Origin: an uncultured Actinomycetes bacterium | Lineage (GTDB): Bacteria; Actinomycetota; Actinomycetes; Mycobacteriales; Nakamurellaceae | NCBI GenBank assembly: GCA_964624455.1 | Contig: CAZUXD010000007.1 | Coordinates: 5,126 to 69,125, forward strand | DNA: 64,000 bases | Direction: 5' to 3' | In this document: one piece after another, positions 5,623 to 28,786 of the stretch | Layout: the number at the start of each line of letters is the position of its first letter | Position numbering within the stretch: the first letter of the stretch is position 1 | Notes under the pieces: model-generated | The model's input: the letters and a program-made list of their open reading frames with translations, nothing else | Database searches by the model: none | What the model was told of the DNA's origin: nothing | Position numbers and translations under genes: made by a program

Positions 5623-5718
5623 GATCCCAAGGTATCAGATTAATCAAATTATGGCCGTATGTGCGGGCGCCTTGCGCCGGGCCGGCCGGTTGCCGGTTCG
5701 ATCGGGGGCACCGTAGTA

Positions 5719-5734
5719 TCGAACCTATGTTCGG
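5719..5734 (+). promoter_or_regulatory. LexA (SOS) box, actinobacterial type
   Basis: TCGAACCTATGTTCGG compared with the consensus TCGAAC-N4-GTTCGA (15/16 if the last base is counted). A TAGTAT -10-like hexamer (5713-5718) lies immediately upstream. The imuA' ATG (5727) lies inside the box. Confidence 0.75.
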
Positions 5735-11930: not shown

Positions 11931-11941
11931 GGCGGCCGTTC

Positions 11942-13437: not shown

Positions 13438-13450
13438 GTCACACCTGCGT

Positions 13451-14512
13451 TCATGCCGCCACCCCCAGGGCCAGGCCCACCGCGACGGCGGAGGACTCGG
13501 TCGATTGCCGTGCGGATGGCGTCGAGTCGGTGATGTGCCGCATCGGGGTCGCGAGCGTCACCGGCGTGCCCATCTCTTCCGCTATGTGGTCGACGAGGCC
13601 GGGCAACAGGGCTCCGCCGCCCGTCAGCGAGATCCGCTCGACGCTGACCCGATGTTGGGTGGCGAAGAAGTGGATTGATCCTCGGATCTCGGTGATCAGC
13701 GGCCGGACCGCCTCGCGCAGCGCCCGGGCGGCCTGGCTCTCGCCGTCCAGGCCGATCGTCCGCTTGGCGGATTCGGCCTCCTCCTCGGAGAGGTTCGCCT
13801 GGTCGGCGAGCCTGCTGGTCCACTCGGCGCCGCCGCGCAGCACCACCCGGACGACCTGGGCGATGCCGTTGGTGTGCACCACGATCGTGGACAGGTGCGC
13901 CCCGATGTCGACCAGCGCCTCGATGACGGCGCCGCCCGATCCGATGGACCGCAGCAGGCCGAAGGGTGCGAGGTCGACCCGCGCCACCTTCAGCTTCGCC
14001 TTCTCCACCGCGCGCACCGCGGTCAGCACCGGCCCGCGCGGAATCCCGGTCAACAGGCCGGTGATGGTGCTGCCCCCCGCGTCGGAATCCTCGATGCGCG
14101 AGAAGTCGAGCAGCGCCTGGTCCAGCGGCAGCGCGATCACCTCCCGCGCCTTGAACGGCAGGGTCTGCCGCAGTTGCGCATCGGACAGGTTCGGCAGCTT
14201 GAGGTCTCGCACCACCACTTGCTGGCTGGTCACCCCGAGCACCACGCGCCGCGATTTGATCTTGTTCTCGGCCCACAGCTTCTTCAGGGCGGCGGTGACG
14301 GTGCCGGGATTGACCACGGCACCGTTCACCACCGCACCATCTGGGAGAGGCACAGCGCCCAGGCTGTGCACGCTCACTGTCGGCCGACCCGCCACGACCT
14401 TCGGAATGAGCACCGCAGCACGCACCGCCGTCGCACCGAGATCGACGCCGACGACGCGGCCGCCGGAATTGGTGACGCTCAGCTTGTTCGCGGAGCGTGC
14501 GCGGTTGGTCAT
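13451..14512 (-). CDS. pilM: Type IV pilus assembly protein PilM (actin-like ATPase fold)
   Basis: 353 aa: …VVGVDLGATAVRAAVL…VVVRDLKLP…VDIGAHLSTIVV…LTGGGALLPGL…, a typical PilM/FtsA-like pattern. Confidence 0.85.
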   Translation of the reverse strand: MTNRARSANKLSVTNSGGRVVGVDLGATAVRAAVLIPKVVAGRPTVSVHSLGAVPLPDGAVVNGAVVNPGTVTAALKKLWAENKIKSRRVVLGVTSQQVVVRDLKLPNLSDAQLRQTLPFKAREVIALPLDQALLDFSRIEDSDAGGSTITGLLTGIPRGPVLTAVRAVEKAKLKVARVDLAPFGLLRSIGSGGAVIEALVDIGAHLSTIVVHTNGIAQVVRVVLRGGAEWTSRLADQANLSEEEAESAKRTIGLDGESQAARALREAVRPLITEIRGSIHFFATQHRVSVERISLTGGGALLPGLVDHIAEEMGTPVTLATPMRHITDSTPSARQSTESSAVAVGLALGVAA

Positions 14513-14555
14513 GGAAGGTCCTTGGGTTGGTCAGAACTGGACGTCGGACGTCAAA

Positions 14556-15011
14556 TCACGTGGTTGGCGGTGCCGCGGTACCTCCACCGACGGAACCGCC
14601 AGCAGAAGTGTCGAAGGTGAATGCGTTGCCCGAAGTGTGCTTTCCGTTGGGGTTGTACCCCGTGATCGTCACACCGTCCCCGCCGCTGTTTGCCTCAATT
14701 GTCATGACGGTCCCGGCAGAAAGCAGCACCGGATTGTCGGCACAAAGGTCGAAAGAGCCGGGGCCGGTGGATGTTGCGAGGCTTTCCCACGTGTGAGTAT
14801 CGGTGTAGCATTCCTGCACAACCACCGCCGCATTCCGAACATCGGCCTGCGTGGCCTTGTCCACCGCGTTCTTCTGGTAGTTCAAGTACAGCGGAATCGC
14901 GATGGCGATCAGGATGCCGATGATCACCACGACCACCAGCAACTCGATCAGGGTAAACCCCTTGTCCTCTCGAGCCCGGCGGGCCCGAATCGACTCGTAC
15001 CGTGACAACAT
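14556..15011 (-). CDS. pilA: Major type IV pilin
   Basis: 151 aa from ATG 15011: MLSRYESIRARRAREDKG|FTLIELLVVVVIIGILIAIAIPLYLNYQ. Canonical G/FTLIE cleavage-methylation motif. GGGAGG RBS upstream. A Cys pair lies in the C-terminal half. Confidence 0.9.
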   Translation of the reverse strand: MLSRYESIRARRAREDKGFTLIELLVVVVIIGILIAIAIPLYLNYQKNAVDKATQADVRNAAVVVQECYTDTHTWESLATSTGPGSFDLCADNPVLLSAGTVMTIEANSGGDGVTITGYNPNGKHTSGNAFTFDTSAGGSVGGGTAAPPTT

Positions 15012-15074
15012 GTGAGCCTCCCAGCTCCTTTTCCAGTGCGCCTGCCGGATGCAGGACGCCACGGGTATTGCGGT

Positions 15075-16301
15075 CTATTGCGCGATGCTCTGGTAGATGG
15101 TGAACATCGGCAGATAGAGCGAGATCACCATGGAGCCGATGACGGCGCCCAATACGACCACCATCAGCGGTTCGATCGCGGACGCGAGCGCCTCGGTCGC
15201 CGTTTTGACCTCATGGTCGTAGTAATCGGCAGTCTTATCGAGCATTTCAGTGATTTGGCCGGTCTCTTCTCCGACCTCGACCATCTGCACCACCATCGGC
15301 GGGAAGACCGGGTGCTCGGACATCGGCTCGGACATGCTCCGCCCGCCGCGGACGGCCGCGCGCACGTCGGCCATGGCGCTTCCGATCACGGCGTTGCCCG
15401 CGGTGCCGCCGACGACCTCCAGGGCCTGCAGCGCCGGCACCCCGACCTGCAGCAGCGTGCCGAGGTTTCGCGCCCAGCGGGCGAGCGCGATCTTGGTGAA
15501 GAGGGTGCCGAACACCGGAAGCTTCAGCTTGAGCCGGTCGACCTTCAGTTGGAAGGCCTCGTTGGCGCGGTATGCCTTGCGGTATGCGGTGACCGAGGCG
15601 ATCAGTACGACGAGGAACGCCGGGACCCACCACCACGCGTTGTGCGACAGCGCGATCAGGATCTTGGTCGGCAGCGGCAACGTACCGCCCAGATCGGTGA
15701 ACATCTTCTCGAACACCGGCACGATGAAGACGATGACGCCGATCCCCAGGATCAGCGAGAAGCACAGCACGATGACGGGGTACGTCATGGCGCCCTTGAT
15801 CTTGGCGCGGAGCTCCGCGTCCGCCTCGTACATGGTGGCGATCCGGCCGAGCGCCTCGTCCAGGAAACCGCCGGTCTCGCCGGCCCGCACCATGTTGACC
15901 ATGAGGGTGGGGAAGTGGTCGGGATGCTCGGCCATCGCCGTGGAGAGCGGCGAGCCGTGCTGCACGTCGGCCTTGATGCGGCGGACCGCCGACTTCAGCC
16001 CCGGCTTGGTGATCTGCTGCTCCAGGATCGTCAGGGCCCGCAGCAGGCTCAGGCCCGACGACGTCATGGACGCGAACTGCCGGGTGAACAGGGCCAGGTC
16101 CTTGGGCTTGGTGCGCTGCCGAAGGCCCGGAATGTTGATCTCGCGCTGCAGGCCGTGGCCCGCGGCGGCGATCGACGTCGGGGTGAGCTTGCGGACCGTC
16201 AGGGTCTGCGCGGCAGACTCGGCGCTGTCGGACTCGATGGTCCCCTTGACGAGCTTCCCGGAGGAATCCAGCGCCTCGTAGGCGAAGGCGGTCGCAGCCA
16301 T
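15075..16301 (-). CDS. pilC: Type IV pilus platform protein (GspF/PilC family)
   Basis: 408 aa with two GspF-type repeats (…LSLLRALTILEQQ… / …VPALQALEVVGG…) and three TM segments. Confidence 0.9.
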   Translation of the reverse strand: MAATAFAYEALDSSGKLVKGTIESDSAESAAQTLTVRKLTPTSIAAAGHGLQREINIPGLRQRTKPKDLALFTRQFASMTSSGLSLLRALTILEQQITKPGLKSAVRRIKADVQHGSPLSTAMAEHPDHFPTLMVNMVRAGETGGFLDEALGRIATMYEADAELRAKIKGAMTYPVIVLCFSLILGIGVIVFIVPVFEKMFTDLGGTLPLPTKILIALSHNAWWWVPAFLVVLIASVTAYRKAYRANEAFQLKVDRLKLKLPVFGTLFTKIALARWARNLGTLLQVGVPALQALEVVGGTAGNAVIGSAMADVRAAVRGGRSMSEPMSEHPVFPPMVVQMVEVGEETGQITEMLDKTADYYDHEVKTATEALASAIEPLMVVVLGAVIGSMVISLYLPMFTIYQSIAQ

Positions 16302-16377
16302 GCCGGATTCATCGGCAGGTCAGCAAGGAACTTGAACGATCCGTCCACGGCTCCGGCCGGCCGATGGCGACGGCCGC

Positions 16378-18045
16378 TCAGACCGTGACCCGCAGCACCT
16401 CTTCCAGCGTCGTCAGGCCCTGCTTGGCCTTGTCCAGGCCGTCCTCCCGGAGTGGGATCATCCCTTCGGCGCGCGCCGCCTTCGCGATGTCGCTGGCGGC
16501 CGCATCCGAGACGGTCAGCCGTTCGATCTCCTCCGAGACCGGCATCACCTCGTTCACCGCGAGCCGCCCGCGGTAACCCGTACCCGAGCAGGAGCGGCAG
16601 CCGACCGCGCGGAAGAGCTCGTCCGGACGGCCGAGCGTCTCCCACGGCCAGCCGGCCGCGGTGAGGTCCTCGCTCGCCGGCTGGTAGGACTCTTTGCACC
16701 AGTCGCACAGGCGCCGCACCAGCCGTTGCGCCAGCACCGCGTCGATCGACGAGCCCACCAGGAACTGTTCGATGCCCATCTCCACGAGCCTCGTCATCGC
16801 CGACGGCGCGTCGTTGGTGTGCAAGGTGGAAAGGACGAGGTGCCCGGTGAGCGCGGCCTCCACCGCGAGTTGCGCCGTGACCCGGTCGCGGATCTCGCCG
16901 ACCAGCACCACGTCCGGGTCGGAACGCAGGATCGCCGGCAGCACCGCGGCGAAGGTCAGGCCCGCCTTGGGGTTCACCTGGATCTGGTTGATGCCGTCGA
17001 TCCGGTACTCGACCGGGTCCTCGACCGTGATGACGTTGACTTCCGGCCGGGCGATCTCGGTCAGGGTGGCGTACAGCGTGGTGGACTTGCCCGACCCCGT
17101 GGGCCCCGTCACCAGCACCATGCCGTGCGGTTTGGTGAAGCTGGCCGAGAAGCGGCGGTAGGTCTCCTCCGCGAAGCCGAGCTTTCGCAGGTTCAGGTCG
17201 ATGCTTCCGGTGTCGAGGATCCGCAGCACGATCTTCTCGCCCCACACCGTCGGCAGCGTCGCCGTTCGCAGGTCCACGTGCCGGCCGCCCACCTCCATGG
17301 TGATGCGGCCGTTCTGCGGCACCCGGCGTTCGGTGATGTCGAGCCCGGACATGATCTTCAGCCGGGAGATCAGCGCCGCCTGGATCGGGCGCGGAACGGT
17401 GTCGGTGTGGTGCAGCACGCCGTCGATCCGCACCCGCACCCGCATGTCGTGCTCGCTGGGTTCGAGGTGGATGTCCGAGCCGCGGGAGGTGATGGCCCGC
17501 TCCAGCAGGTTGGACACGAAGCGGACCACGGGGGCGTCGTCGTCGACGTCGGCTAGGGCGTCGGACAGCGCGCTGTCGTCGACCATGCTGGCCGCGGCCT
17601 CGCCGAGGTCGGTGTTGCTTCTCGTGAAGCGATCGAGCAGCTTCGTCAGGTCGCCGCTCGAGAGCACGACCGGCCGGACCTGCAGCCCCGTCGCGGCGCG
17701 GATGTCGTCGATGGCGAGCACGTTGCCGGGGTCGTCCAGCGCGACGGTGACGGTGGAATCGGTGGCCGACACCGGAACCATCTGGTGCCGCCGAGCCAGC
17801 GCGAGCGGGACCAGCGACATGGCCTTCTGATCGATCGTCATCGAGCTCAGTTCGGCGACGTCGAGGCCGTAGGCGTAGGCGATGGCGGAGGCCAGTTCGA
17901 ACTCGGTGACGACCTGGTCGTCGACCAGCACGGTCCGCAGGGGGCGCCCGCTCCGCTCGGCGTTGGCGGCCGCGGCTTGCAGCGTGTGCTCGTCGACCCC
18001 GCGCGAGCGCAGCGTGTTGAACACCGTCTGGCTGGCAGGATCCAT
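16378..18045 (-). CDS. pilB: Type IV pilus assembly ATPase (GspE/PilB family)
   Basis: 555 aa. N-terminal GSPII_E_N-like domain, Walker A GPTGSGKSTT, Asp/His boxes, and a C-terminal tetracysteine (CDWC…CRSC). Confidence 0.9.
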   Translation of the reverse strand: MDPASQTVFNTLRSRGVDEHTLQAAAANAERSGRPLRTVLVDDQVVTEFELASAIAYAYGLDVAELSSMTIDQKAMSLVPLALARRHQMVPVSATDSTVTVALDDPGNVLAIDDIRAATGLQVRPVVLSSGDLTKLLDRFTRSNTDLGEAAASMVDDSALSDALADVDDDAPVVRFVSNLLERAITSRGSDIHLEPSEHDMRVRVRIDGVLHHTDTVPRPIQAALISRLKIMSGLDITERRVPQNGRITMEVGGRHVDLRTATLPTVWGEKIVLRILDTGSIDLNLRKLGFAEETYRRFSASFTKPHGMVLVTGPTGSGKSTTLYATLTEIARPEVNVITVEDPVEYRIDGINQIQVNPKAGLTFAAVLPAILRSDPDVVLVGEIRDRVTAQLAVEAALTGHLVLSTLHTNDAPSAMTRLVEMGIEQFLVGSSIDAVLAQRLVRRLCDWCKESYQPASEDLTAAGWPWETLGRPDELFRAVGCRSCSGTGYRGRLAVNEVMPVSEEIERLTVSDAAASDIAKAARAEGMIPLREDGLDKAKQGLTTLEEVLRVTV

Positions 18046-18269
18046 GGTGCTCCTCGGCTCAAGAATGGGTGGTCGGGCTGGGCGACGATGCGTCGCCGAG
18101 CGTATCCCCGCGGCGCCCCCCGATCGCCCATCCGTGGTCTTTTTCGGCGCGCGCGTTCAACTCTTGAGCGTTGCTGCCGTTTAGTACCGGTGACGAGACC
18201 GCCGGGGCTTGGTACCGGTGACGAAACCGCCGAGGCGGCGCGCCGAACGGGGCGCGCGCAGCGGGCGGT

Positions 18270-19610
18270 ATGGCGTGGGAGGGCGTCTGTGCGATGACGA
18301 TGCTGACCGACCATTCAGGTGCCGGAGGCACGATGGGCCGCCACGGCGCGCCGGACGGCGCTGCCGGCGCACCGGATGGCCTCGACGACGGTGCCCTGAA
18401 GGACGCCGCGGAAATCGGGCGGCCGGAAGACGGGCGCGCTGCTGTCGCGGCGCCCGGCGGGTTTCGCGGCACGGCGGCACCGGACGGAAACGGCGCGTCG
18501 GCCGGCGTTGCGGCGCACAACGGGGCAGAGGCGCACACCGGGGCAGACACGGCGGAGATCGACCGCCTGCTGGTGACGATGGTCAACGACGGTGGGTCCG
18601 ATCTGCACGTCACCTCGGGGATCGCGCCCTGCATCCGGATCGACGGCGTGTTGCGCCCTCTAGCGGAGGCGTCCGTGCTGTCCTCGGCCGACACGGAACG
18701 GATGGTGCGCTCGTTCCTGACGGATGCCGAATGGGCGCGGTTCGTGCGGGACAACGAGCTCGATATCGCCTACGCCATCGCGGGTGTCAGCCGTTTCCGG
18801 GTGAACATCTACCGGCAGCGGGGCTCGGTCGGGGCCGCGTTCCGGGGCATCCCGCACCACATTCGAAGCCTCGCCGACCTCGGCATGCCCGGCTCGGTGG
18901 AACAGTTCGCCGCGCTGCCGCGCGGCCTGGTGCTGGTGACGGGACCGACGGGCTCCGGAAAGTCCACCACCCTGGCAAGCCTGCTGGACGTGGCGAACAA
19001 GACCCGCTTCGGGCACATCGTCACCATCGAGGACCCGATCGAATACCTGCACCGGCATGGCACCTGCGTGGTCAACCAGCGCGAGGTCGGCAGCGACACC
19101 GCGGATTTCGCCGTCGCGCTCAAGCATGCCCTGCGCCAGGACCCCGACATCATCCTGGTCGGGGAGTTGCGGGATCTGGAGACCACGTCGGTTGCGATCA
19201 CCGCGGCCGAGACCGGGCATCTCGTGCTCGCGACGCTGCACACCAAGTCGGCCGCCCAGACCATCGATCGGTTGATCGACATCTACCCGCACGCCCAGCA
19301 GCAGCAGATCCGGGCCCAGTTGGCCAACGCGCTGGAGGGCGTCGTGACGCAGGCCCTGCTGCCGCGCCGCGAGGGCGGCCGGGTGGTGGTGTGCGAGGTG
19401 ATGGTGTCGACCTCCGCGATCCGCTCGCTGATCCGTGAGGACAAGGTCCACCTCATCCCGAGCTACATCCAGTCCGGCGGTGACGTCGGCATGGTCAGCT
19501 TCGATCAGCATCTGGCGCATCGTTACCGCGACGGTCTGGTCAGCAAGACGGTCGCGATGGATGTCGCGCAGGACCAGGGCGAGTTCCAGCGGCTGGCGGG
19601 CCTGATATAG
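18270..19610 (+). CDS. pilT: Twitching-motility retraction ATPase PilT-like, with N-terminal low-complexity extension
   Basis: The PilT core starts at …EIDRLLVTMVNDGGSDLHVTSG…. Walker A GPTGSGKSTT, plus …LRQDPDIILVGELRD…TGHLVLATLHT…. The start is ambiguous (ATG 18270/18294/18300/18333); every option leaves a >=75-aa Gly/Ala/Pro/Asp-rich extension. Confidence 0.85.
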   Translation: MAWEGVCAMTMLTDHSGAGGTMGRHGAPDGAAGAPDGLDDGALKDAAEIGRPEDGRAAVAAPGGFRGTAAPDGNGASAGVAAHNGAEAHTGADTAEIDRLLVTMVNDGGSDLHVTSGIAPCIRIDGVLRPLAEASVLSSADTERMVRSFLTDAEWARFVRDNELDIAYAIAGVSRFRVNIYRQRGSVGAAFRGIPHHIRSLADLGMPGSVEQFAALPRGLVLVTGPTGSGKSTTLASLLDVANKTRFGHIVTIEDPIEYLHRHGTCVVNQREVGSDTADFAVALKHALRQDPDIILVGELRDLETTSVAITAAETGHLVLATLHTKSAAQTIDRLIDIYPHAQQQQIRAQLANALEGVVTQALLPRREGGRVVVCEVMVSTSAIRSLIREDKVHLIPSYIQSGGDVGMVSFDQHLAHRYRDGLVSKTVAMDVAQDQGEFQRLAGLI

Positions 19611-19622
19611 GTCGCGTGGAGC

Positions 19623-19733
19623 GGATCGTTTGGATCGTTTGGATCGCTTGGATCGTTTGGATCGTTTGGATCGCTGACCGCTTGGACGGTTGGACCGCTT
19701 GGACCGTTCGGACCGTTTAGACCGCTTAGACCT
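19623..19733. repeat. 9-bp satellite, ~12 units (GGATCGTTT drifting to GGACCGYTT / AGACCGCTT)
   Basis: Begins 13 nt after the pilT stop. Read directly: ggatcgttt ggatcgttt ggatcgctt ggatcgttt ggatcgttt ggatcgctg … ggaccgctt ggaccgttc ggaccgttt agaccgctt. Confidence 0.9.
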
Positions 19734-19884
19734 TAGGTTGCTGGAGCGCTGGATCGCCGCCGGGGAGGCGGAATTTCAAGCCGGTCTTCGCGACGGTTCG
19801 CGTCCAGAGCGGGTCCGGGTTCCGGACGGTGGTCGTAGTGGGCCCATCCGGAGGCCTGCTACACGATGTTGGGCCTTGCATCGC

Positions 19885-20466
19885 GTCGCACGTGCTTCGA
19901 CATTTCGGACATGCGTGCCGTTCGGCATTCGGGATCCAGGTGTCGCCTTGGCCATGACGTCGCACGTGCTTCGACATTTCGGACATTCCTGTGCCGTATG
20001 GCGCCTTGCAAGTCCATTCATCCGAATGCCGCAGTCGTGGCCGCTGGAGTTTTCACGACGAATGTAGATACTGCTGTCGCTTCGGCTTGACGCGGCATGA
20101 AGTTGCCAACTGGCCCAGGCAAATATGACGCATAGTCGCCGTGTGGTTCGACGGTGGCCCGGGAGTCGCGGCGCGGGAGCCAAGATCGGGTCGCGTCGCA
20201 CGTGCTTCGACATTTCGGACATTGCGCCGTGACGTGATGTCCCAGTCGGCGCGGCGTGCTCCTACGCAGGGTCCCGCCCTGGGGCGGCTCTGGGCGGTAA
20301 CCGAAAGCGGACGCAGCCGGCGGCGCCGACATGGTGAGTCCAGTGCCGCACGGTGAGTCAGTGCGCGCTGCACGTGCTTCGACATTTCGGACATACAGCG
20401 GCTCGGTCAGCGGGCAAGGGGCCGTCGACTTGCGTTCGCGCCGCACGTGCTTCGACATTTCGGACA
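19885..20466 (+). repeat. Five dispersed direct copies of a 24-28-nt element (core CACGTGCTTCGACATTTCGGACA)
   Basis: Core starts at 19889, 19963, 20199, 20371 and 20444, all in the same orientation, with spacings of 74/236/172/73 nt. Copies 1-3 extend to GTCGCACGTGCTTCGACATTTCGGACAT. The copies fall in different reading frames relative to each other. Confidence 0.9.
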
Positions 20467-20595
20467 CGGCACGCTTTCAATCGGGCATCTGTTCATTCTA
20501 GTCACTTGCTACACATGTCCGTCCCGCTGAATGGACCGTTGTCGTACCTTCGTTCTAAACTCAGAACATAGTTCAGGAGCCGTTTGGAGGGTGTG

Positions 20596-22725
20596 ATGGA
20601 CGTCTGGGGGTCCGGGGAGTGGTGGGCAGCCTGGCAGAGTGCGCCTGCCCTGGAGGGTACAGCGGGGGGAGGGTACGCATCCTTCGCTGAGGAGGACAGC
20701 GCTGAGGAGGACAGCGTTGAGGAGGACACGGCCGGCGCGCGGGATGCCGGCCGCGCCAACTGGGGCAGCGGCAGCGGCCGCGCCAACTGGGGCAGCGGCC
20801 GCGCCAACAAGGCCATCTCGGTGCATGCCTCGCACCCGCCCCGCACCGAGGGAGGACCCTCGCCTGCTACCGCGGGCGAGGCCGGTGAATCCTCGTCATC
20901 GACAGAAACGCCAGCGAGGCCGGGGGCGGAGGCAACACGGCCTCCGTCATCGAACGGCCGGGCCGACTTGGAGCGGTTGGAGGCCCGGATCCGCGGAATG
21001 GCGGCCAACTTGGCGGCTTCGACGTGCGAGTGGTTGCACCTGATCGGGCAGTTCGACCGGGCCGAGGGTTGGGCTGGGGTCGGGATCCAGTCCTGCGCCG
21101 CATGGTTGTCGTGGACGTGCTCGGTCGCACCGGGGACCGCGCGCGAATACGTGCGCATCGCGCGGATGCTGCCGGCATTGCCGCTGGTGGACGAGGCATT
21201 TACGGCGGGGCGTTTGTCGTACTCCAAGGTGCGGGTGCTGGCCCAGGTCGCCGGCGAGGTGGACGAAGCCGTGCTGGTGGAGCAGGCGCAGGTGCAGACG
21301 GTGTCCCAACTCGAACGGACGGTCCGGGCCTACCGGCGCGGCGATGGGCGCGATCAGCAGCGTAAGCGTCGGGCGGTCTGGCGATGGGATGACGACGGGA
21401 TGCTTGTCCTATCGGCCCGGCTGCCACCCGACGAGGGCGCCCTGCTCCTCGCCGCACTGGAACGAGCGAGGGACGACATCGCTCCTCGCCCCGAACCCTC
21501 ATGCCCCGAACCCTCATGCTCCGAACCCTCATGCCCCGAACCTGTTGCCGGGCAGGATGATGCCACCCCTGGAGATGCCGCACCGGTAGGCGAGCCCACC
21601 GGAGCAATCATGTGCTCGGCATCCGGCGGCGGCACGATTGCCGATTTTGCCGGCGTAGCGGGTGATTTCGTGGGCACAGCGGGTGATTTCGTGGGCACAG
21701 CGGGTGATTTCGTGGGCGCAGCCGATGATTTCGCAGCAGCCGATACCGCCGCCGCGGCTGTCGCCCCCGCACCGGCGGGGCATCCGATGCCACGACCAAC
21801 CGGCGACGACCGGCAGCGAGCCGCGCTGGCGGGCGCCGACCCGCTCGGGATGGCCGGTGCGGACATGCTCGTCGCGCTCGCACAACGGGCGCTGGCGGCG
21901 GGGGAGGTGGACGGTTCAGGTGACGATCGTCATCTCCTGATACTGCATGCGGATCTCGACCACCTCGTCGATGACGACGAATCGGGGCCACGCGATTCCC
22001 AGCCGGTCGGCGGATTAATCGGCTCCGAAGCTGAGCTACACGAAACCAACGGTGGGCAAGCCGATTCCGGCGCCGAATTGACCGATAACGGCACGGGGTC
22101 AATCGGATTCGCTGATGATCATGCAGATTCCCCTCCCGGCGGGCGCCGTCCCGGGGTGCGGCCCGCGGCCGGGTCCACCCTTGCCCGGGCGCGCTGCCAT
22201 CTGGAGGACGGTCCGGGCCTAGATCGTCGGATGGCGCAGCGGATTGCTTGCGATGCAGCACTTGTCGCAGTGCTGCACCATGTCGGCGAAGGGGAACCGC
22301 TGCGGTTGGGACGAAAGACCCGGACCATCTCGCCGGCGCAGCGCCGCGCCCTGCGCGTTCGCGACGGCGGCTGCCGGTTCCCGGGTTGCCATCGCCGCAA
22401 GCACCTTGAGGCGCATCACGTACGGCACTGGTCGCTCCTTGGACCCACCGACCTGGAGAACCTGGTCCTGCTGTGCCGCTTTCACCACATGCTCATCCAC
22501 GAGGGTGGTTTCCGGGTGTCGGCAACTTCCCAAGGATCGTGGGCGTTTCGTGATGCTCGCAGTGTGCCGGTGACGATGGCTCCGCGGCTACCCGGTCATG
22601 ATGGTGCAGCGCTGCCGGTGCAAGTGGGCGATCCGATGGCGCTTCTGCCGGGTTGGCGCGGCGAGCCGTTCCACCTGGCCGAAACCGTCGCCGTTCTGAT
22701 GCGAGCCGCCGGGGCGGGTACGTGA
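20596..22725 (+). CDS. DUF222 + HNH endonuclease (13E12-repeat-family-like)
   Basis: ORF 20584-22725; ATG 20596 follows a GGAGG RBS. DUF222-like region: …LAASTCEWLHLIGQFDRAEGWAGVGIQSCAAWLSW…AREYVRIA…. C-terminal HNH: …RDGGCRFPGCHRRKHLEAHHVRHW…NLVLLCRFHHMLIHEGG…. The N-terminal ~120 aa and the start are uncertain. Confidence 0.8.
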   Translation: MDVWGSGEWWAAWQSAPALEGTAGGGYASFAEEDSAEEDSVEEDTAGARDAGRANWGSGSGRANWGSGRANKAISVHASHPPRTEGGPSPATAGEAGESSSSTETPARPGAEATRPPSSNGRADLERLEARIRGMAANLAASTCEWLHLIGQFDRAEGWAGVGIQSCAAWLSWTCSVAPGTAREYVRIARMLPALPLVDEAFTAGRLSYSKVRVLAQVAGEVDEAVLVEQAQVQTVSQLERTVRAYRRGDGRDQQRKRRAVWRWDDDGMLVLSARLPPDEGALLLAALERARDDIAPRPEPSCPEPSCSEPSCPEPVAGQDDATPGDAAPVGEPTGAIMCSASGGGTIADFAGVAGDFVGTAGDFVGTAGDFVGAADDFAAADTAAAAVAPAPAGHPMPRPTGDDRQRAALAGADPLGMAGADMLVALAQRALAAGEVDGSGDDRHLLILHADLDHLVDDDESGPRDSQPVGGLIGSEAELHETNGGQADSGAELTDNGTGSIGFADDHADSPPGGRRPGVRPAAGSTLARARCHLEDGPGLDRRMAQRIACDAALVAVLHHVGEGEPLRLGRKTRTISPAQRRALRVRDGGCRFPGCHRRKHLEAHHVRHWSLLGPTDLENLVLLCRFHHMLIHEGGFRVSATSQGSWAFRDARSVPVTMAPRLPGHDGAALPVQVGDPMALLPGWRGEPFHLAETVAVLMRAAGAGT

Positions 22726-24620
22726 TGACGGCCGCAAACGCTACCGGATGGGCACCGGCCGGGCAGGCGTCCGGGGCTCGTCCGTCCGCGCATGGCCGCG
22801 GTCGTACCCGCCGCAGAAACGAGCCGTACACCAGCCCTGCGCCCGATAACCGGCCGGCCAGCGGCCCGCCCGGCCCGGCGCCGGCCCCTCCTCCTTCCGC
22901 CGCGGTCGCCGCATCTTCCGGCGGCGGCCTGCCCGCCCGATCCCGCACTCTGATCATCTGGTGCCCGGACTGGCCGGCGGTCGCCGCCGCCCGGAACGCC
23001 GGCCATCCAACGGAAGGGGCCGTTGCGGTCTTCCACGCGAACCGGGTGCAGGCTTGCTCGGCGGCGGCCCGCGCCGATGGGGTCCGCACGGGCATGCGCC
23101 GCCGGGACGCCCAGTCCCGCTCGCCCGGCCTGGCGGCATTGCCCGCCGATGCGGATCGCGATGCGCGGCTGTTCGAGCCGGTCGCCGCGGCGGTGGAGGC
23201 GATCGTCCCCGGGATAGAGGTGCTCCGGCCCGGCATGCTCGCGTGCGCGCTTCGCGGGCCGGCCCGGTATTTCGGGTCGGAGACCGCAGCAGCCGAACGG
23301 CTCGTCGACGCGGTCGAGGCGCTGGATGTGGAATGCCGGATCGGCATCGCCGACGTGTTGCCGGTCGCGGTGCTGGCCGCCCGGCAGTCGGTGATCATCC
23401 CGCCGGGCGGTGACGCGGTGTTCTGCGCCCGGCTGCCGATCGTGGAGCTGGCGCGTGATCCGGCCATTGCTTCGCCAGAGCGAATGCAGCTCGTTGATCT
23501 GCTGATGCGGTTGGGCATCACCACCGCGGGGGCGTTCGCGGCACTTCCCTTCGACAAGGTTGCCGCGCGGTTCGGGGCGGAGGGGATGGTGCTGCACCGG
23601 CTGGCGTCCGGCCGGGCCGAGCGCGGACTGTCCCGGCGCCACATCGACACCGACCTGTCCGTGGAGAAGGTCTGTGACCCCCCGCTGGAACGGGTCGACA
23701 CCGCGGCGTTCGTCGCGCGCGCGCTGGCCGAGCAGTTTCACGCCGGGCTGGCCGCCGCCGGGCTCGCCTGTACCCGGCTGGCGATCACCGCCAGCACCGA
23801 GCGTGGCGCGAGGTTGACCCGAATCTGGCGGGGCGCTCGCCCGTTGTCCGCGGCCGCCACGGCCGATCGGCTGCGCTGGCAGTTGGACGGCTGGTTGACC
23901 AACGGTTCCCGGGTAGGCGCCGGCGACGCCGATCGAGCTGTCGGCGCCGGCCGCGTCGACGCCAGCCACATCGATGACGTTGGTTCCGGGCACATCGATA
24001 CCGCCGATCCGAGCGATCGACCGGGGGCGATCACCAAGCTCCGACTGGAACCGATCGAGGCGGTCGGGGCCGGGCTGATCCAGTACGGGCTGTGGGGGCA
24101 GGACGGGGAGGGCGAACACCGAGCCGGGTGGGCGTTCGCCCGGGTGCAAGGGCTGCTCGGCCCGGACGCGGTCCTGGCCGCCACCCCCTCCGGCGGTCGC
24201 GGTCCGGCCGACCGCGTCACCCTGACCGGTTGGGGGGAGGAGAGGATCCCGAGGCGCGATCCGACCGCCCCCTGGCCCGGGGTGCTGCCGTCGCCGGCGC
24301 CGGCTTCGCACCTTCGGGCCGGCGGTGGCGCGGCCGCCGGAAACGTCGCTTCCGGGGCCACCGTCACCGTCTCGGATCCCGCTGGCCGCGAGGTCGCCGT
24401 CACCGACCGGGGAATGCTCACCGGACCGCCCGCCGCGGTCGGCGGCAACCGGGTGCTGTCCTGGGCTGGGCCCTGGTTGCTGGACGAGCGTTGGTGGTCT
24501 GGCCCCGTCACCGCGCCAGCGGCCCGGACGGCCCGGATGCAGGTGATCGCCGACGGGATGTCCCCGATGCTGCTCGGGTTCGGCTCGCGCGGCTGGCAGG
24601 TCGAGGCGGTGTACGACTGA
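22725..24620 (+). CDS. imuB: ImuB, Y-family-polymerase-like mutasome subunit
   Basis: ATG 22725 overlaps the HNH TGA (GTGATGA). After a ~95-aa Pro/Ala-rich N-terminus the core is …RTLIIWCPDWPAVAAA…AVFHANRVQACSAAARADGVRTGMRRRDAQ…FEPVAAAVE…GIADVLPVAVLAAR…. Directly upstream of dnaE2. Confidence 0.85.
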   Translation: MTAANATGWAPAGQASGARPSAHGRGRTRRRNEPYTSPAPDNRPASGPPGPAPAPPPSAAVAASSGGGLPARSRTLIIWCPDWPAVAAARNAGHPTEGAVAVFHANRVQACSAAARADGVRTGMRRRDAQSRSPGLAALPADADRDARLFEPVAAAVEAIVPGIEVLRPGMLACALRGPARYFGSETAAAERLVDAVEALDVECRIGIADVLPVAVLAARQSVIIPPGGDAVFCARLPIVELARDPAIASPERMQLVDLLMRLGITTAGAFAALPFDKVAARFGAEGMVLHRLASGRAERGLSRRHIDTDLSVEKVCDPPLERVDTAAFVARALAEQFHAGLAAAGLACTRLAITASTERGARLTRIWRGARPLSAAATADRLRWQLDGWLTNGSRVGAGDADRAVGAGRVDASHIDDVGSGHIDTADPSDRPGAITKLRLEPIEAVGAGLIQYGLWGQDGEGEHRAGWAFARVQGLLGPDAVLAATPSGGRGPADRVTLTGWGEERIPRRDPTAPWPGVLPSPAPASHLRAGGGAAAGNVASGATVTVSDPAGREVAVTDRGMLTGPPAAVGGNRVLSWAGPWLLDERWWSGPVTAPAARTARMQVIADGMSPMLLGFGSRGWQVEAVYD

Positions 24621-24747
24621 TGGGGCGCGGTGACGTAGGCGCTGCTCACGGCGGTGACGGTGGCGGTGCGGTTCGCGGTGACGATGCGGCTTACGGCTGT
24701 GACGATGCCGTCTACGGCGATGACGGCGTTCGGCTGAGGTGGCCTTG

Positions 24748-27700
24748 ATGGGCTGGTCCAATCCGCCGGTGCCCTGGGACGAACTGTCCCGGATGATGGA
24801 GGGCCGAGCTCCGCGCGGCGATCGGCCGCGGCCCGCGCTGCGCACGGTGCCGGCAGACGAAGTGTCCCGGCGCCGCGGCACGGGCCGTCGGCCCGATCCG
24901 TCTGCCGGCGCTGCCCCGTCCGCCGGCACCGATCCGACCCCCGGCGCCGATCCGCCTGCCGGCGCTGCCCCGTCCGGCGGCACCGATCCGAACCTCGGCA
25001 CCGATCCGAACCCCGGCGCACCCGCGTCGGCCGTGGTGCCCTACGCGGAACTGCACTGCCATTCGTCGTTCAGCTTCCTGGACGGCGCCTCCACCCCCGA
25101 GCAACTGGTCGCCGAGGCGCTGCGGCTGGACCTGACCGCCCTGGCGCTCACCGACCGGGACGGGTTCTACGGGGTCGTCCGGTTCTGCGAGGCCGCCCGC
25201 GGAACGGGCCTGAAAACCCTGTATGGCGCGGAGCTTTCGCTCGGGTTGCCGCGACCGCAGCTCGGTGAGCCCGACCCTGTCGGCGAGCATCTGCTGGTGC
25301 TGGTCCGCGGACAGGAGGGGTACCGACGGCTGTCCAGGCAGATCACCCACGCGCAGCTCGCCGGTGGGGAGAAGGGCCGCCCGGTCTACGACCTGGACAT
25401 GCTGGCCGGCGCCGCCGACGGGCACTGGCTCGTCCTCACCGGCTGCCGCAAGGGGGCCGTCCGGCGGGCCCTACGCCGCGCCGGACCGGACGGTGCCCTG
25501 GCCGAAGTGCGCACGCTGGTCGACCGTTTCGGCGCCGACAACGTGGCCGTCGAACTCACCCGGCACCTGGTACCCACCGACGACGAGGACAACGACGCGC
25601 TGGCCGGCATCGCCGCCCGGCTGGACCTTCCGGTCGTGGCGACCACCGCGGCGCACTATGCCGACCCGCGGGCCGCCCGGCTCGGCGCCGCCGTGGCCGC
25701 GGTCCGCGCTCGGCGCAGCCTCGCCGAGGCCGACCCCTACCTTCCGGCGGGCCCCAGCGCACACCTGCGATCGGGCGTCGAGATGGCCCGCCTGTTCGCC
25801 CGGTACCCGCAGGCGGTTTCCACCGCGGCGGTGCTGGGCGAACAGTGCGCATTCGACCTGCGCCTTCTCGCGCCCCAACTACCGCCGTTCGACGTGCCGC
25901 CAGGTCATGACGAGGCGAGCTACCTGCGTGAGCTCACCCTGTCCGGGGCGCTTCGCCGCTACGGCCCGCCGGAGCGAAACCCGAAGGCGTACAAGCAGAT
26001 CGAGAAGGAGCTGCGCGTCATCACCGAGATGAACTTCCCCGGTTACTTCCTCGTCGTGTACGACATCACCGAGTTCTGCCGGCGGAGCGACATCCTGTGT
26101 CAGGGCAGGGGATCTGCTGCGAACTCGGCGGTGTGCTACGCGCTGGGGATCACCGCGGTGGACGCGGTCGGCTACGACCTGCTGTTCGAACGATTCCTGG
26201 CCCCCGAACGCGACGGCCCACCCGATATCGATGTGGACATCGAATCCGACCGGCGCGAGGAGGTGATCCAGTACGTCTACCGGAAATACGGCCGGGAGCG
26301 GGCTGCGCAGGTCGCCAACGTCGCCACCTTCCGGCCGCGGATGGCGGTGCGGGACATGGCAAAAGCCCTGGGCTACTCGCCCGGCCAACAGGATGCCTAC
26401 TCCAAACAACTCGACCACTGGACCCCGCTGGCCGATCAGGTGGCCGACGTCGCCGCCGACCGCGGCGCGTCCGGCGCCGGCTTGTTCGCCGCGAACGCCG
26501 ACCGCGGTAGCACCGTCCCGGGCGGCACCGTTCCGGGCGGCACCGGCCGGTATTCCGCCGGGCACGACACCGGAATCCCGCGCGACGTGGTGGAACTGGC
26601 CCAGCAGATCCAGGACCAGCCCCGGCACCTGGGCATCCACTCCGGCGGCATGGTGATCTGCGACCGGCCGGTAGCCGAGGTGTGCCCGGTGGAGTGGGCG
26701 CGGATGGCGGATCGCAGCGTGCTGCAGTGGGACAAGGACGACTGCGCCGCCATCGGCCTGGTCAAGTTCGACCTGCTGGGCCTGGGCATGCTCTCGGCGC
26801 TGCATTACGCCGTCGATCTGGTCCGGGAGCACGAGGGGATCGAGATCGACTTCGCCGCACTGGACCTGGCCGAGCCGGCGGTCTACGAGATGCTGCGGCG
26901 GGCCGACTCGATCGGGGTCTTCCAGGTTGAGTCCCGGGCGCAGATGGCCACGTTGCCGCGCCTGAAGCCGCGCGAGTTCTACGACCTGGTCGTCGAGATC
27001 GCGCTGATCCGGCCCGGTCCCATTCAGGGCGGCTCGGTGCATCCCTACCTGCAGCGCCGGGAGGCGGTCCGGCAGGGCACCTGGCGGGGGCCGTTCGTCG
27101 AGCACCCGGCCATGCAGCGCGCGCTGGGAAAGACCTTGGGGATCCCGCTGTTCCAGGAACAGCTGATGGAACTTGCCATCGACGTGGCCGGGTTCGACGC
27201 CGGGGAGGCCGACCAACTGCGCCGTGCGATGGGTTCCAAACGCTCCGCCGAGAAGATGCGCCGGCTCCGCGATCGGCTGTACACCGGGATGCGCGAATTG
27301 CACGGCATCACCGGCGAACTGGCCGATTCCATCTACGAGCGGCTGCGGGCGTTCGCCAACTTCGGCTTCGCCGAGTCGCACGCGCTGAGCTTCGCCTCGC
27401 TGGTGTTCTACTCCGCCCACCTCAAGCTGCACCACCCGGCGGCGTTCTGCGCCGCGCTGCTGCGCGCCCAGCCGATGGGCTTCTACTCGCCGCAGTCGCT
27501 GGTCGCCGACGCCCGCCGGCACGGGGTCGAGGTGCGCCGCGCGCACGTCAACAGCTCCGTCGCGGCGGCCGGGTTGGAGCCGGGGCCGCGGGGCCGACCA
27601 GCGGTGCGGCTGGGTCTCTCGGGCATCCGGACCATCGGCGACGAGTTGGCCGAGAAGATCCTCGCGGCGCGTCCGGTGGCCGGGTATCCGGACATCGAAT

Positions 27701-28479
27701 CGCTGATGACGGCGGTGACGATGACGGCGGCACAGGCCGAGGCGCTGGCCACCGCCGGCGCTCTCGATGGGCTACCAGGCGGCTGGGGCGGCGTGGCGCG
27801 CGCGCCCGGCACCGCTGGGCATGGACCCGCATCCGGCACCGCTGGGCCCGTGCCCGCATCCGGCGCCGCGGCGCATGTGTTCACCGCTGGACCCGGCGGG
27901 TCCACGCCCACGACCGGTGGGACGGCTGCGGGGCGCACCGCCGGCCGAGGGCGATCGGGGCTGGAGCGCCGGCAAGCCCTGTGGTCGGCCGGGAGCGCGG
28001 CCTCGGCGCGCCCCGGCATGCTGCCGGGCGCGCTGACTGGCCTCCAAGCGCCCACCCTCCCCGGCATGAGCGACATCGAACTGACGGTGGCCGACATCTG
28101 GGCCACCGCCATCTCCCCGGAGCATTATCCGACCGAATTCTCCCGGGAGGGGCTGGCGGCGTTGGGCGTCGTCACCGCCGCAGGGTTGCACGGAATCGAG
28201 CACGGAACTCGGGTGCTGACCGCAGGCATCGTCACCCACCGGCAGCGCCCCTCCACGGCATCCGGCGTCACCTTCCTGAACCTGGAGGACGAGACGGGGA
28301 TGGTCAACGTGATCTGCTCGGTCGGGCTGTGGCACCGCTACCGGCGAATCGCGCGCGGCGCCCCGTCACTTCTGGTCCGCGGCGTCGTCGAGCGGAACGG
28401 CGCGGCGATCTCGCTGGTCGCCGACCGGATTGCCGCCGTCGACCTGGGCGTCGTCATGCCGTCCCGGGACTTCCGCTGA
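24748..28479 (+). CDS. dnaE2: Error-prone DNA polymerase III alpha subunit DnaE2
   Basis: MGWSNPPVPWDEL… N-terminus is typical of DnaE2. PHP domain (YAELHCHSSFSFLDGAS) and pol III alpha core (…GRGSAANSAVCYALGIT…FERFL…PDIDVDIES…). Low-complexity insertions are present. An alternative GTG start lies at 24739. Confidence 0.92.
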   Translation: MGWSNPPVPWDELSRMMEGRAPRGDRPRPALRTVPADEVSRRRGTGRRPDPSAGAAPSAGTDPTPGADPPAGAAPSGGTDPNLGTDPNPGAPASAVVPYAELHCHSSFSFLDGASTPEQLVAEALRLDLTALALTDRDGFYGVVRFCEAARGTGLKTLYGAELSLGLPRPQLGEPDPVGEHLLVLVRGQEGYRRLSRQITHAQLAGGEKGRPVYDLDMLAGAADGHWLVLTGCRKGAVRRALRRAGPDGALAEVRTLVDRFGADNVAVELTRHLVPTDDEDNDALAGIAARLDLPVVATTAAHYADPRAARLGAAVAAVRARRSLAEADPYLPAGPSAHLRSGVEMARLFARYPQAVSTAAVLGEQCAFDLRLLAPQLPPFDVPPGHDEASYLRELTLSGALRRYGPPERNPKAYKQIEKELRVITEMNFPGYFLVVYDITEFCRRSDILCQGRGSAANSAVCYALGITAVDAVGYDLLFERFLAPERDGPPDIDVDIESDRREEVIQYVYRKYGRERAAQVANVATFRPRMAVRDMAKALGYSPGQQDAYSKQLDHWTPLADQVADVAADRGASGAGLFAANADRGSTVPGGTVPGGTGRYSAGHDTGIPRDVVELAQQIQDQPRHLGIHSGGMVICDRPVAEVCPVEWARMADRSVLQWDKDDCAAIGLVKFDLLGLGMLSALHYAVDLVREHEGIEIDFAALDLAEPAVYEMLRRADSIGVFQVESRAQMATLPRLKPREFYDLVVEIALIRPGPIQGGSVHPYLQRREAVRQGTWRGPFVEHPAMQRALGKTLGIPLFQEQLMELAIDVAGFDAGEADQLRRAMGSKRSAEKMRRLRDRLYTGMRELHGITGELADSIYERLRAFANFGFAESHALSFASLVFYSAHLKLHHPAAFCAALLRAQPMGFYSPQSLVADARRHGVEVRRAHVNSSVAAAGLEPGPRGRPAVRLGLSGIRTIGDELAEKILAARPVAGYPDIESLMTAVTMTAAQAEALATAGALDGLPGGWGGVARAPGTAGHGPASGTAGPVPASGAAAHVFTAGPGGSTPTTGGTAAGRTAGRGRSGLERRQALWSAGSAASARPGMLPGALTGLQAPTLPGMSDIELTVADIWATAISPEHYPTEFSREGLAALGVVTAAGLHGIEHGTRVLTAGIVTHRQRPSTASGVTFLNLEDETGMVNVICSVGLWHRYRRIARGAPSLLVRGVVERNGAAISLVADRIAAVDLGVVMPSRDFR

Positions 28480-28786
28480 GCGCCGCTCCTCCGCGGTACA
28501 CCCAGGGGCTCGCCGACGCCGGTCGCCGGCGCCACGAATGCCTCCCCCTCCTGCCGGACGGCGACACCCAGGCTGCCGGCTGACATCATGGAGGACGTGC
28601 CGACACGCCGACCGATGCATCCCTCGCCCAGCGCGCGCAGACCGAACGTCACCGCGGCATGATCGGGTTGCCGAGCGCGCGGCCGCAACGTCCGGCGCGC
28701 CGAGAACCCCCACGGCGGCCCGACGAACCTGCCGTGCGCGCGGGATGTTCGTGGCCGCAGGTGTGTGCGCGATGGGAGGCGGACAG

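Follow-up and report, generated by a model that had tools for sequence, protein, structure and literature searches.

A 13E12-type nuclease gene as the probable first cistron and translational entry point of imuB-dnaE2 in a Nakamurella-related actinobacterium

This analysis of a 64-kb stretch of actinobacterial DNA (hereafter the window) indicates that an SOS nuclease gene of the 13E12 type, which would have been inserted in an ancestor, is now probably the promoter-proximal cistron and the translational entry point of imuB-dnaE2. The evidence consists of the gene order, the overlap of the nuclease gene with imuB, the conservation and co-divergence of the pair, the selection acting on the nuclease gene, the remnants that it has left in some relatives, and the positions of damage-type promoter motifs.

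The nuclease gene and its product

The gene occupies positions 20596-22725 of the plus strand (upstream limit 20584/20596) and encodes a protein of 709 aa. Pfam assigns it a DUF222 domain (PF02720, scoring 60.5 bits where the gathering threshold is 24.4) and an HNH domain (PF01844, 25.1 bits against 21.4). Its ATG at 20596 is preceded by a Shine-Dalgarno sequence, GGAGGG (20586-20591, plus strand), with a predicted anti-SD duplex of -9.8 kcal/mol. The helical DUF222 domain covers approximately residues 130-292 (20983-21471, plus strand), and AlphaFold2 gives a pLDDT above 90 across approximately residues 120-240 of this region; a structural match to the DUF222 domain was sought in the PDB and none was found. 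The HNH beta-beta-alpha-metal motif (22372-22500, plus strand) comprises C593-x4-C598, H607, H608, N622, C627, H631 and H635, all of which are unchanged in an alignment of 13 relatives, and its PDB matches by sequence profile and fold are the HNH domains of IscB and McrA. We infer that the product is an active-looking beta-beta-alpha-metal nuclease maintained by purifying selection. Logan contigs of three wastewater metagenome runs gave the sequence of positions 20400-21487 and 21702-23100 with zero differences.

A DUF222 + HNH architecture also characterizes the 13E12/REP13E12 genes of Mycobacterium tuberculosis (for example Rv0336, Rv0515, Rv1702c and Rv2100), which are multi-copy, dispersed and unlinked to imuB (PMC3381160, PMC13157036). 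Unlike REP13E12, the window gene is single, a search of the 64-kb window and of the related 17-kb loci having found no further copy in any of them; it forms the first cistron of imuB-dnaE2, shares bases with the imuB start and has been inherited along with imuB.

The first-pass annotation had described four tandem arrays within this reading frame, and TRF recovered all of them on the plus strand, in frame and with every period divisible by 3. Two lie in the disordered N-terminal region, AEEDS (20685-20728, period 15, 2.9 copies) and GRANWGS[GS] (20748-20803), and two in the inter-domain linker, PEPSC (21488-21542, period 15, 3.7 copies) and AGDFVGT (21657-21733, period 21, 3.7 copies). The description of the second array as 21-bp repeats is only approximate: it consists of a 27-bp unit, a 21-bp unit and a partial unit, and TRF scores it as period 27 with 2.1 copies. 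Approximately 17 arrays of comparable quality are present in the whole window, so that four arrays in 2.1 kb compare with about 0.57 expected (Poisson P ~0.003); the enrichment is genuine but modest. All four are missing from every orthologue and fall within predicted disordered linkers. They are, judging from this comparison, recent lineage-specific slippage expansions with no conserved role, rather than a designed element of the nuclease-imuB module.

The junction with imuB

The nuclease gene is followed on the same strand by imuB (22725-24620, 631 aa, with a Pfam IMS domain) and, directly after it, by dnaE2, which encodes an error-prone DNA polymerase (24739-28479, plus strand; NF004225, 1458 bits). 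The 5' part of dnaE2 also carries tandem arrays (24885-25033). ImuB is 48-76% identical to the products of actinobacterial imuB loci. Its first 72 residues or so (22725-22940) form a P/A/G/R-rich extension, which most relatives lack and the closest ones (L018, L081, L091, L092) possess.

At the junction, GTGATG (22722-22727, plus strand; acGTGATGAcg in context), the TGA of the nuclease gene (22723-22725) shares bases with the ATG of imuB (22725-22727); GTG at 22722 is an alternative start in the same frame. As the imuB frame holds no further ATG, GTG or TTG upstream of RTLIIWCPDWP, a conserved stretch at about 22941, translation must start at the junction. The overlap, noted at first pass in the window, is kept in 15 of the 17 contigs that bear the gene pair, its ATGA form being found in 11/11 genome loci and in L083, L091 and L092; in two relatives it is replaced by gaps of 29 and 41 nt. 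The likeness to an imuA'-imuB junction was also well judged, an NTGA overlap of the same kind being present between these two genes at 28 of 49 Rhodococcus/Nocardia loci.

Among the nuclease-bearing loci, the predicted anti-SD duplex averages -9.3 kcal/mol before the nuclease starts and -3.7 kcal/mol before the imuB starts; at several of these loci the value before imuB is approximately 0, and a Shine-Dalgarno sequence is usually absent there. Translation of imuB thus appears to be begun by ribosomes that have just finished the nuclease gene. In the window itself, a moderate SD-like G-run precedes imuB (-7.2 kcal/mol), and coupling there may for this reason be non-obligatory. Termination-reinitiation coupling through an upstream reading frame is an established mechanism in bacterial operons. 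The present loci share with such systems the ATGA/TGATG overlap, the weak or absent downstream Shine-Dalgarno sequence and, after deletion, the sufficiency of a short leader ORF. They differ in that the leader is mostly a full-length nuclease gene, of 430-710 aa across most lineages, that is apparently under purifying selection.

Four-nucleotide gene overlaps are frequent in high-GC actinobacterial operons. The nuclease gene could accordingly be a chance neighbour, an unrelated SOS gene that happens to lie upstream with an overlap of no consequence, and the abundance of tandem arrays throughout the window would fit such a view. We consider this highly improbable, given the retention of the junction in nearly all contigs, the absence of any other start codon for imuB in the window and of a Shine-Dalgarno sequence at most loci, and the fact that five independent deletions, described below, each left a leader ORF overlapping the imuB start.

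imuA' and the damage-type promoters

The first-pass annotation had taken imuA' to be missing, with the nuclease gene in its place. This has to be corrected: imuA' is present at 5727-6587 on the same (plus) strand, approximately 14 kb upstream of the nuclease gene. A profile HMM built from Rhodococcus/Nocardia imuA' matches positions 5574-6584 (E=2.3e-45), and the product has a weak RecA-fold Pfam match. A perfect LexA (SOS) box, CGAACCTATGTTCG (5720-5733, plus strand), lies right after a TAGTAT -10 element and spans the imuA' ATG (5727), a layout also found at M. tuberculosis Rv3395c (PMC3381160). In relatives, the order is imuA', nuclease gene, imuB.

Several traits of the canonical imuA'-imuB-dnaE2 mutasome are therefore found in the window, namely adjacent same-strand imuB and dnaE2, a LexA box over the imuA' start and an overlap before imuB. 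In contrast to the canonical cassette, where imuA' lies directly upstream of imuB and is coupled to it, the overlapping gene is here the nuclease gene, imuA' appears to form an SOS unit of its own at a distance of 14 kb, and imuB-dnaE2 seems to have a second damage-type promoter. Published neighbourhood surveys for Y-family and DnaE2 genes name no nuclease partner (PMC6511836, PMC12926913).

The candidate promoter is a PafBC/RecA-NDp-type motif, TGTCGTAC-N8-TAAACT (20540-20561, plus strand), conserved in relatives with and without the nuclease gene; the published consensus is TGTCGG-N10-TA-N3-T (PMC8151990). It is followed by a degenerate LexA box, GAACATAGTTC (20564-20574, plus strand), with a 3-nt spacer that was confirmed in three independent metagenome assemblies. 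The corresponding position in relatives is occupied by GAAC-N4-GTTC, a box that is exact in 9 of 11 members of the genome collection and likewise in L081, L083, L084 and L091. Because of the shortened spacer, LexA control may have been lost at the nuclease operon of the window.

At nuclease-bearing loci, TGTCG..N..TAnnnT and GAAC-N4-GTTC stand upstream of the nuclease gene, and at loci without it they stand directly upstream of imuB. A scan for the sigma-70 consensus and for terminator-like sites found neither between the nuclease gene and imuB. The positions of the two motifs across loci agree with the earlier suggestion that nuclease and imuB are co-expressed, and they point to a single damage-type promoter. 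Co-transcription and damage induction of the pair are thus predicted, as is re-initiation at imuB. Regulation by a LexA box and/or RecA_NDp, of a type that the motifs may indicate in the window, is a trait of the M. tuberculosis 13E12 family, where LexA binds six of the genes and others carry RecA_NDp (PMC3381160), and mitomycin C induces HNH genes together with imuA'/imuB/dnaE2 (PMC8151990).

Inheritance and selection in relatives

The adjacency of the nuclease gene and imuB was found at 11 related genome loci and on 5 metagenome contigs, nearly all related loci being metagenome-assembled contigs; the order is repeated in contigs of P0004, P0013, P0016, P0002 and P0010. When the nuclease protein was compared by tblastn with 80 imuB loci, all 11 matches lay directly upstream of imuB. 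The adjacency, whose absence from other genomes had been named in advance as grounds for abandoning the idea of a module, is therefore widespread among relatives and apparently inherited vertically.

Across 13 loci, distances between nuclease proteins co-vary with those between ImuB proteins (Mantel r=0.92, p=1e-4), and the nuclease tree mirrors the ImuB tree, the agreement being at group level in neighbour-joining trees without support values. On these comparisons, the nuclease gene is inherited vertically along with imuB. For the same pairs, dN/dS is 0.13-0.33 for the nuclease gene and 0.04-0.27 for imuB, with dS near saturation for most pairs; by these ratios, the nuclease gene is under purifying selection. 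Frameshifts in the nuclease genes of L003 and L011 may represent assembly errors or decay.

Free-standing HNH homing endonuclease genes sit between conserved genes of phage operons. The window gene resembles them in being an HNH reading frame flanked by two conserved genes that belong to a single pathway, and in its presence/absence polymorphism among relatives. It could be a still-mobile selfish endonuclease that repeatedly targets the site upstream of imuB through cycles of invasion, decay and loss. Presence and absence of the gene are indeed interleaved on the ImuB tree, the frameshifted copies in L003 and L011 and the leader remnants would be decayed copies, in L093 a close relative that has DUF222 but no HNH match in Pfam lies beside smpB, placing the family at other sites, and the REP13E12 copies of M. 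tuberculosis are regarded as insertion elements (PMC3381160). Unlike the phage genes, however, the window gene co-diverges with its host gene, has a large DUF222 domain and occurs only once in the window and not more than once in any 17-kb locus. In addition, its family is rare or nearly absent in the phage and plasmid collections searched, neither terminal repeats nor target duplications were seen at the gene, dN/dS of ~0.2 would be unexpected for a fixed, immobile homing gene, and sites lacking the nuclease hold deletion remnants instead of being clean empty sites. Continued mobility is, in our view, quite unlikely.

Loss of the nuclease and retention of a leader ORF

In five relatives, the nuclease body has been deleted and a leader ORF of 6-59 codons is retained, in each case overlapping the imuB ATG: 59 codons in L018 and in L019, approximately 50 in L004, 29 in L048 (with the motif MWQSAPAH) and 6 in L005. 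The leader ORFs are built from N-terminal codons of the nuclease gene, and that of L018 visibly includes the C-terminal tail as well. As judged from these loci, the nuclease is dispensable for persistence of the cassette, and the coupling is retained after its loss.

These losses bear on the possibility that the nuclease is a functional fourth partner of the mutasome, which would nick or trim DNA where forks have stalled or where there are lesions or gaps, and so make or shape 3' ends for ImuA'-ImuB-DnaE2, with co-translation fixing its stoichiometry with ImuB. The overlapping operonic pair has been kept through deep divergence (mean ImuB distance 0.28), the nuclease has an intact active site and evolves under apparent purifying selection, the motif positions suggest a promoter common to it and imuB-dnaE2, and M. 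tuberculosis induces its 13E12 genes along with the mutasome. Nevertheless, at least five lineages have dropped the nuclease body with imuB-dnaE2 intact, which also weighs against the nick-coupled mutagenesis proposed at first pass; the L085 lineage has imuA' and the nuclease gene without imuB-dnaE2 alongside, and most actinobacteria use imuA'-imuB-dnaE2 without such a nuclease, which is absent from 55 Rhodococcus/Nocardia and similar loci. Full-text literature searches found no report that links a 13E12-type gene to the mutasome operon. We regard a fourth partner as unlikely, and it is doubtful, too, that a nuclease held in fixed ratio to ImuB by coupling cuts or nicks damaged or stalled DNA to provide the entry point for DnaE2.

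Proposed origin and expression of the operon

Under the reading that we favour, an inserted gene that became the first cistron, the DUF222-HNH gene would have arrived between imuA' and imuB in an ancestor of the Nakamurella-related clade, possibly bringing the damage-type promoter with it. The insertion would have split the imuA'-imuB-dnaE2 cassette into imuA' alone and a nuclease-imuB-dnaE2 unit. The basis for an insertion together with its promoter is one locus, L009, whose imuA'-imuB junction appears to be ancestral. Transcription would start from the PafBC/RecA-NDp-type promoter, with a LexA operator just after its -10 element, and ribosomes would load at the strong Shine-Dalgarno sequence of the nuclease gene. 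Having finished the nuclease, they would stop at the TGA and re-initiate at the overlapping, usually SD-less, start of imuB, and dnaE2 would be translated thereafter. The nuclease would in this way be produced jointly with ImuB and DnaE2 upon DNA damage. In several lineages, an internal deletion would later have taken the nuclease body and left the short leader ORF.

Implications

The locus may serve as an example of an inserted gene that splits a conserved cassette and then provides the downstream gene with its translational entry point. In M. tuberculosis, 13E12 (DUF222-HNH) genes account for a large share of the LexA regulon (PMC3381160), and the ImuA'-ImuB-DnaE2 mutasome is described as the principal means by which mycobacteria acquire damage-induced mutations and drug resistance (PMC10421592). 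The Nakamurella-like clade physically unites a 13E12-type gene with imuB-dnaE2 and thereby makes it possible to study, in a concrete genetic context, whether the two act jointly. Its close relatives, bearing a full nuclease, a frameshifted copy or a leader ORF only, constitute a natural experiment. If the nuclease did feed DnaE2, this would be a first function for the LexA-controlled 13E12 family of M. tuberculosis, in which SOS nucleases would supply error-prone synthesis.

The HNH gene and its junction with imuB

The HNH gene (20596-22725, + strand) encodes a predicted DUF222-HNH nuclease of 709 aa and is preceded by a Shine-Dalgarno (SD) sequence, GGAGGG, 5 nt 5' of its ATG. Directly 3' of it, also on the + strand, lies imuB (22725-24620), which carries an IMS domain and is followed by dnaE2 (24739-28479, +), which scores 1458 bits as 'error-prone DNA polymerase' in NCBIfam. 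The junction reads acGTGATGAcg, in which the HNH stop TGA (22723-22725) shares a base with the imuB ATG (22725-22727), and an in-frame GTG is present at 22722. Homology of ImuB to its relatives starts only at about residue 72. A later imuB start, which would abolish the overlap, was rejected because the imuB frame contains no ATG, GTG or TTG between 22725 and the conserved RTLIIWCPDWP. The overlap described in the first-pass annotation is thus real, and its comparison with the junctions usually found between imuA' and imuB is apt, given that an NTGA overlap joins these two genes in 28 of 49 Rhodococcus and Nocardia loci.

The promoter region, most of the HNH gene and the junction were recovered with no differences in contigs of three independent wastewater metagenome runs. 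Wastewater DNA metagenomes were the only runs containing the stretch, which was found in none of the RNA runs. With regard to related loci, HNH ends and imuB begins in an ATGA overlap in 11 of 11 genome loci and in the metagenome contigs L083, L091 and L092, the window having the TGATG/GTGA form; a gap takes its place in two other contigs (41 nt in L081 and 29 nt in L084). Mean anti-SD pairing was -9.3 kcal/mol before HNH starts and -3.7 kcal/mol before the imuB starts of HNH-bearing loci, several of which were close to 0. Consensus scans of the + strand at 19600-28700 gave no internal promoters or terminators, which is weak evidence because actinobacterial promoters match the consensus poorly.

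Both domains of the HNH protein exceed the Pfam cut-offs (DUF222, 60.5 bits; HNH, 25.1 bits) and were confidently modelled by AlphaFold2. In the PDB, only the HNH part was matched, weakly to McrA and IscB when the model was searched with Foldseek and again with a sequence profile; neither search gave a solved or matching structure for DUF222. The sole NCBIfam match, a phosphorothioate-dependent restriction enzyme, was far below threshold and ran through the HNH motif. The literature search found no paper on the function of DUF222 or of the nuclease. The C-terminal tail, LLPGWRGEPFHL, was considered as a beta-clamp motif; this reading was dropped because the tail is general to the family, including members unlinked to imuB, and does not fit the ImuB-type motif. 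An origin of the HNH C-terminus from imuA' was also rejected, as no similarity between them was seen.

Recurrence and inheritance of the gene pair

A scan for ImuB in one genome per species gave 80 loci, the closest being from Nakamurella and Mycobacteriales MAGs. The HNH protein matched 11 of these by tblastn, always directly 5' of imuB and at no second place in any locus; all HNH-bearing loci came from MAGs, and the gene is absent from the cultured N. aerolata. Eight of the 11 loci read imuA', 0.3-0.8 kb, HNH, imuB and dnaE2, while the distance between imuA' and the HNH gene is about 4 kb in L003 and L020 and about 1.1 kb in L022. The same gene order was found on the contigs of the closest homologues in a large protein collection (P0004, P0013, P0016, P0002 and P0010), so that the adjacency, for which a survey of imuB neighbourhoods had been suggested, does recur.

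Neighbour-joining trees of HNH and ImuB, built without support values, contain the same groups, and pairwise distances of the two proteins are strongly correlated (Mantel r=0.92, p=1e-4, 13 loci). For the same pairs, dN/dS was 0.13-0.33 for HNH and 0.04-0.27 for imuB, with dS near saturation. The zinc-binding cysteines and the catalytic histidine and asparagine are invariant among relatives, nearly all of which are MAG contigs. Taken together, recurrence, matching trees, correlated distances, dN/dS and invariant residues argue for one old gene pair and against a recent selfish insertion.

The family does occur away from imuB. The more distant DUF222-HNH proteins P0040, P0032 and P0049 are located elsewhere, and two members of the imuB-linked clade are without this partner: P0026 (L085, 5239-7515) directly follows imuA' and has unrelated convergent genes behind it in place of imuB-dnaE2, and P0018 (L093, 6001-7827), which has DUF222 and no HNH match, adjoins smpB. 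That the HNH gene is a still-mobile element is very improbable. A phage or plasmid origin was rejected, each collection giving just two weak matches to the protein. Separately, the HNH genes of L003 (6500-7992) and L011 (6795-7986) are readable only with a frameshift, which points to decay of these copies or to faulty assembly of the MAGs.

Leader ORFs in relatives that lost the nuclease

The strongest evidence for translational coupling comes from relatives that have lost the nuclease. L018, the closest ImuB relative (76% identity), has a 59-codon ORF in which an internal deletion has joined the N-terminus of HNH to its C-terminal tail, and this ORF overlaps the imuB ATG as ATGA. The same overlap ends leader ORFs of 59 codons in L019, about 50 codons in L004 and six codons in L005. 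In L048, a 29-codon ORF starts with MNSWVPEGWTVMWQSAPAH, the HNH N-terminus, and overlaps the imuB ATG as TGATG. Five independent deletions have removed the enzyme and retained the start, the SD sequence and the overlap. This pattern indicates that the reading frame upstream of imuB matters to imuB, and that the nuclease protein is dispensable for the retention of imuB-dnaE2. That the nuclease is a true partner of the mutasome, a reading with which shared inheritance and invariant catalytic residues would agree, is rather unlikely in view of these losses.

A predicted damage-type promoter

In relatives, the HNH gene is preceded by cTGTCGG-N10-TA-N3-T, which fits the PafBC/RecA-NDp consensus (PMC8151990), followed immediately by the actinobacterial LexA box, GAAC-N4-GTTCGA. 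The same composite promoter lies immediately 5' of imuB in HNH-less relatives. The window has a PafBC/RecA-NDp-type motif, TGTCGTAC-N8-TAAACT, at 20540 and a LexA box, GAACATAGTTC, at 20564-20574, the spacer of which is 3 nt instead of the 4 nt of relatives. As this shortened box is identical across three independent metagenome assemblies, LexA control of HNH-imuB-dnaE2 may be weakened in the window, and the operon may have been freed from LexA in this organism with the PafBC-type promoter retained.

Location of imuA'

The first-pass annotation had regarded imuA' as missing. This does not hold: Rhodococcus and Nocardia loci have a conserved ORF 5' of imuB, and an HMM made from it matches the window at 5574-6584 (+ strand, E=2e-45). 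The imuA' ATG (5727, +) lies within a perfect LexA box, CGAACCTATGTTCG, directly 3' of a TAGTAT -10 element, a layout like that of M. tuberculosis Rv3395c (PMC3381160). A PIN-domain ORF (4976-5803, -) between the his genes and imuA' lies just 5' of, and partly overlaps, the imuA' promoter region.

About 14 kb separate imuA' from the HNH gene, comprising type IV pilus genes (Ricin-lectin, He_PIG/pilin, PilB and PilT; 6617-19610) and a 1-kb ORF-poor spacer. This block was compared with L081 and L091 (1-5100) and L092 (1-5000); its He_PIG-to-Ricin part is inverted relative to the corresponding genes of L081 and L091, which point to the HNH gene. Just 3' of the pilT stop, a 9-nt unit is repeated about 11 times in a non-coding tandem array (19614-19735), passing from GGATCGTTT to GGACCGCTT. 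The spacer, which extends from pilT to the HNH promoter, contains five perfect + strand copies of a 24-nt motif, GCACGTGCTTCGACATTTCGGACA (19888-19911, 19962-19985, 20198-20221, 20370-20393 and 20443-20466), where none is expected by chance. These copies end in CAT or CAC, corresponding to minus-strand ATG or GTG, and the minus-strand ORFs overlap one another. A single copy is found at the equivalent relative position in L081 and L082 (5403), and one with two mismatches lies about 90 nt 5' of the promoter in L018; an Rfam search of the spacer gave no matches. In two relatives (L083, 4984-5718; L084, 4890-5558), imuA' and the HNH promoter flank a conserved ORF of 220-245 aa without Pfam matches, and this gene may also occupy the 0.5-0.8 kb gaps that several genome loci have at this position.

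Tandem arrays

The four in-frame arrays attributed to the HNH gene were recovered at the same places with TRF. Given that the window holds about 17 arrays of comparable quality, four within 2.1 kb represent a modest enrichment (Poisson P ~0.003). All four lie in parts of the protein that each orthologue either lacks or cannot be aligned to, and that are predicted to be disordered (pLDDT <50 at residues 13-107 and 308-391, AlphaFold2). Other lineages have unrelated repeats of their own in the same linkers (GSGSV in L028, DDGVQA in L006) and in the ImuB N-terminal extension (SRDAP in L091, TAQQS in L005). Repeats of this kind are common in the genome. The HNH arrays are slippage products in tolerant linkers and no feature of the system.

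In the window and its closest relatives, the low-complexity, repeat-rich ImuB extension comprises 60-90 aa before RTLVVWCPDWP (window, 22725-22940; L091, 8881-9150; L092, 7506-7694; L018, ~1737-2000), compared with 3-10 residues in most other relatives and about 33 in L081. In-frame arrays with 18/54-nt and 27-nt units also occur in the 5' part and body of dnaE2 (24885-25033 and 27806-27877), and four further arrays cluster in a different large ORF (31214-32346).

Origin and significance

In L009, imuA' abuts imuB and a single box precedes imuA', as in Rhodococcus and Nocardia. In M. tuberculosis, genes of the 13E12 family have damage-type promoters at many loci (PMC3381160). In the simplest history, an ancestor would have acquired a 13E12-type gene at the imuA'/imuB junction, and this gene may have carried a damage-type promoter with it. 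The insertion would have split the cassette and taken over transcription and translation initiation of imuB-dnaE2, leaving imuA' and the remainder free to drift apart. Their separation is now 14 kb in the window and 4 kb in L003 and L020, and other genes lie between them in L005 and L015.

LexA-regulated 13E12 genes and the imuA'-imuB-dnaE2 cassette are already known. The literature searched, including two surveys of the neighbourhoods of Y-family and DnaE2 genes (PMC6511836, PMC12926913), does not mention the two in one operon with a conserved overlap. Here a 13E12-type gene and imuB-dnaE2 are joined in a single operon with such an overlap, in which the nuclease would most likely be co-induced with the mutasome yet not needed by it.
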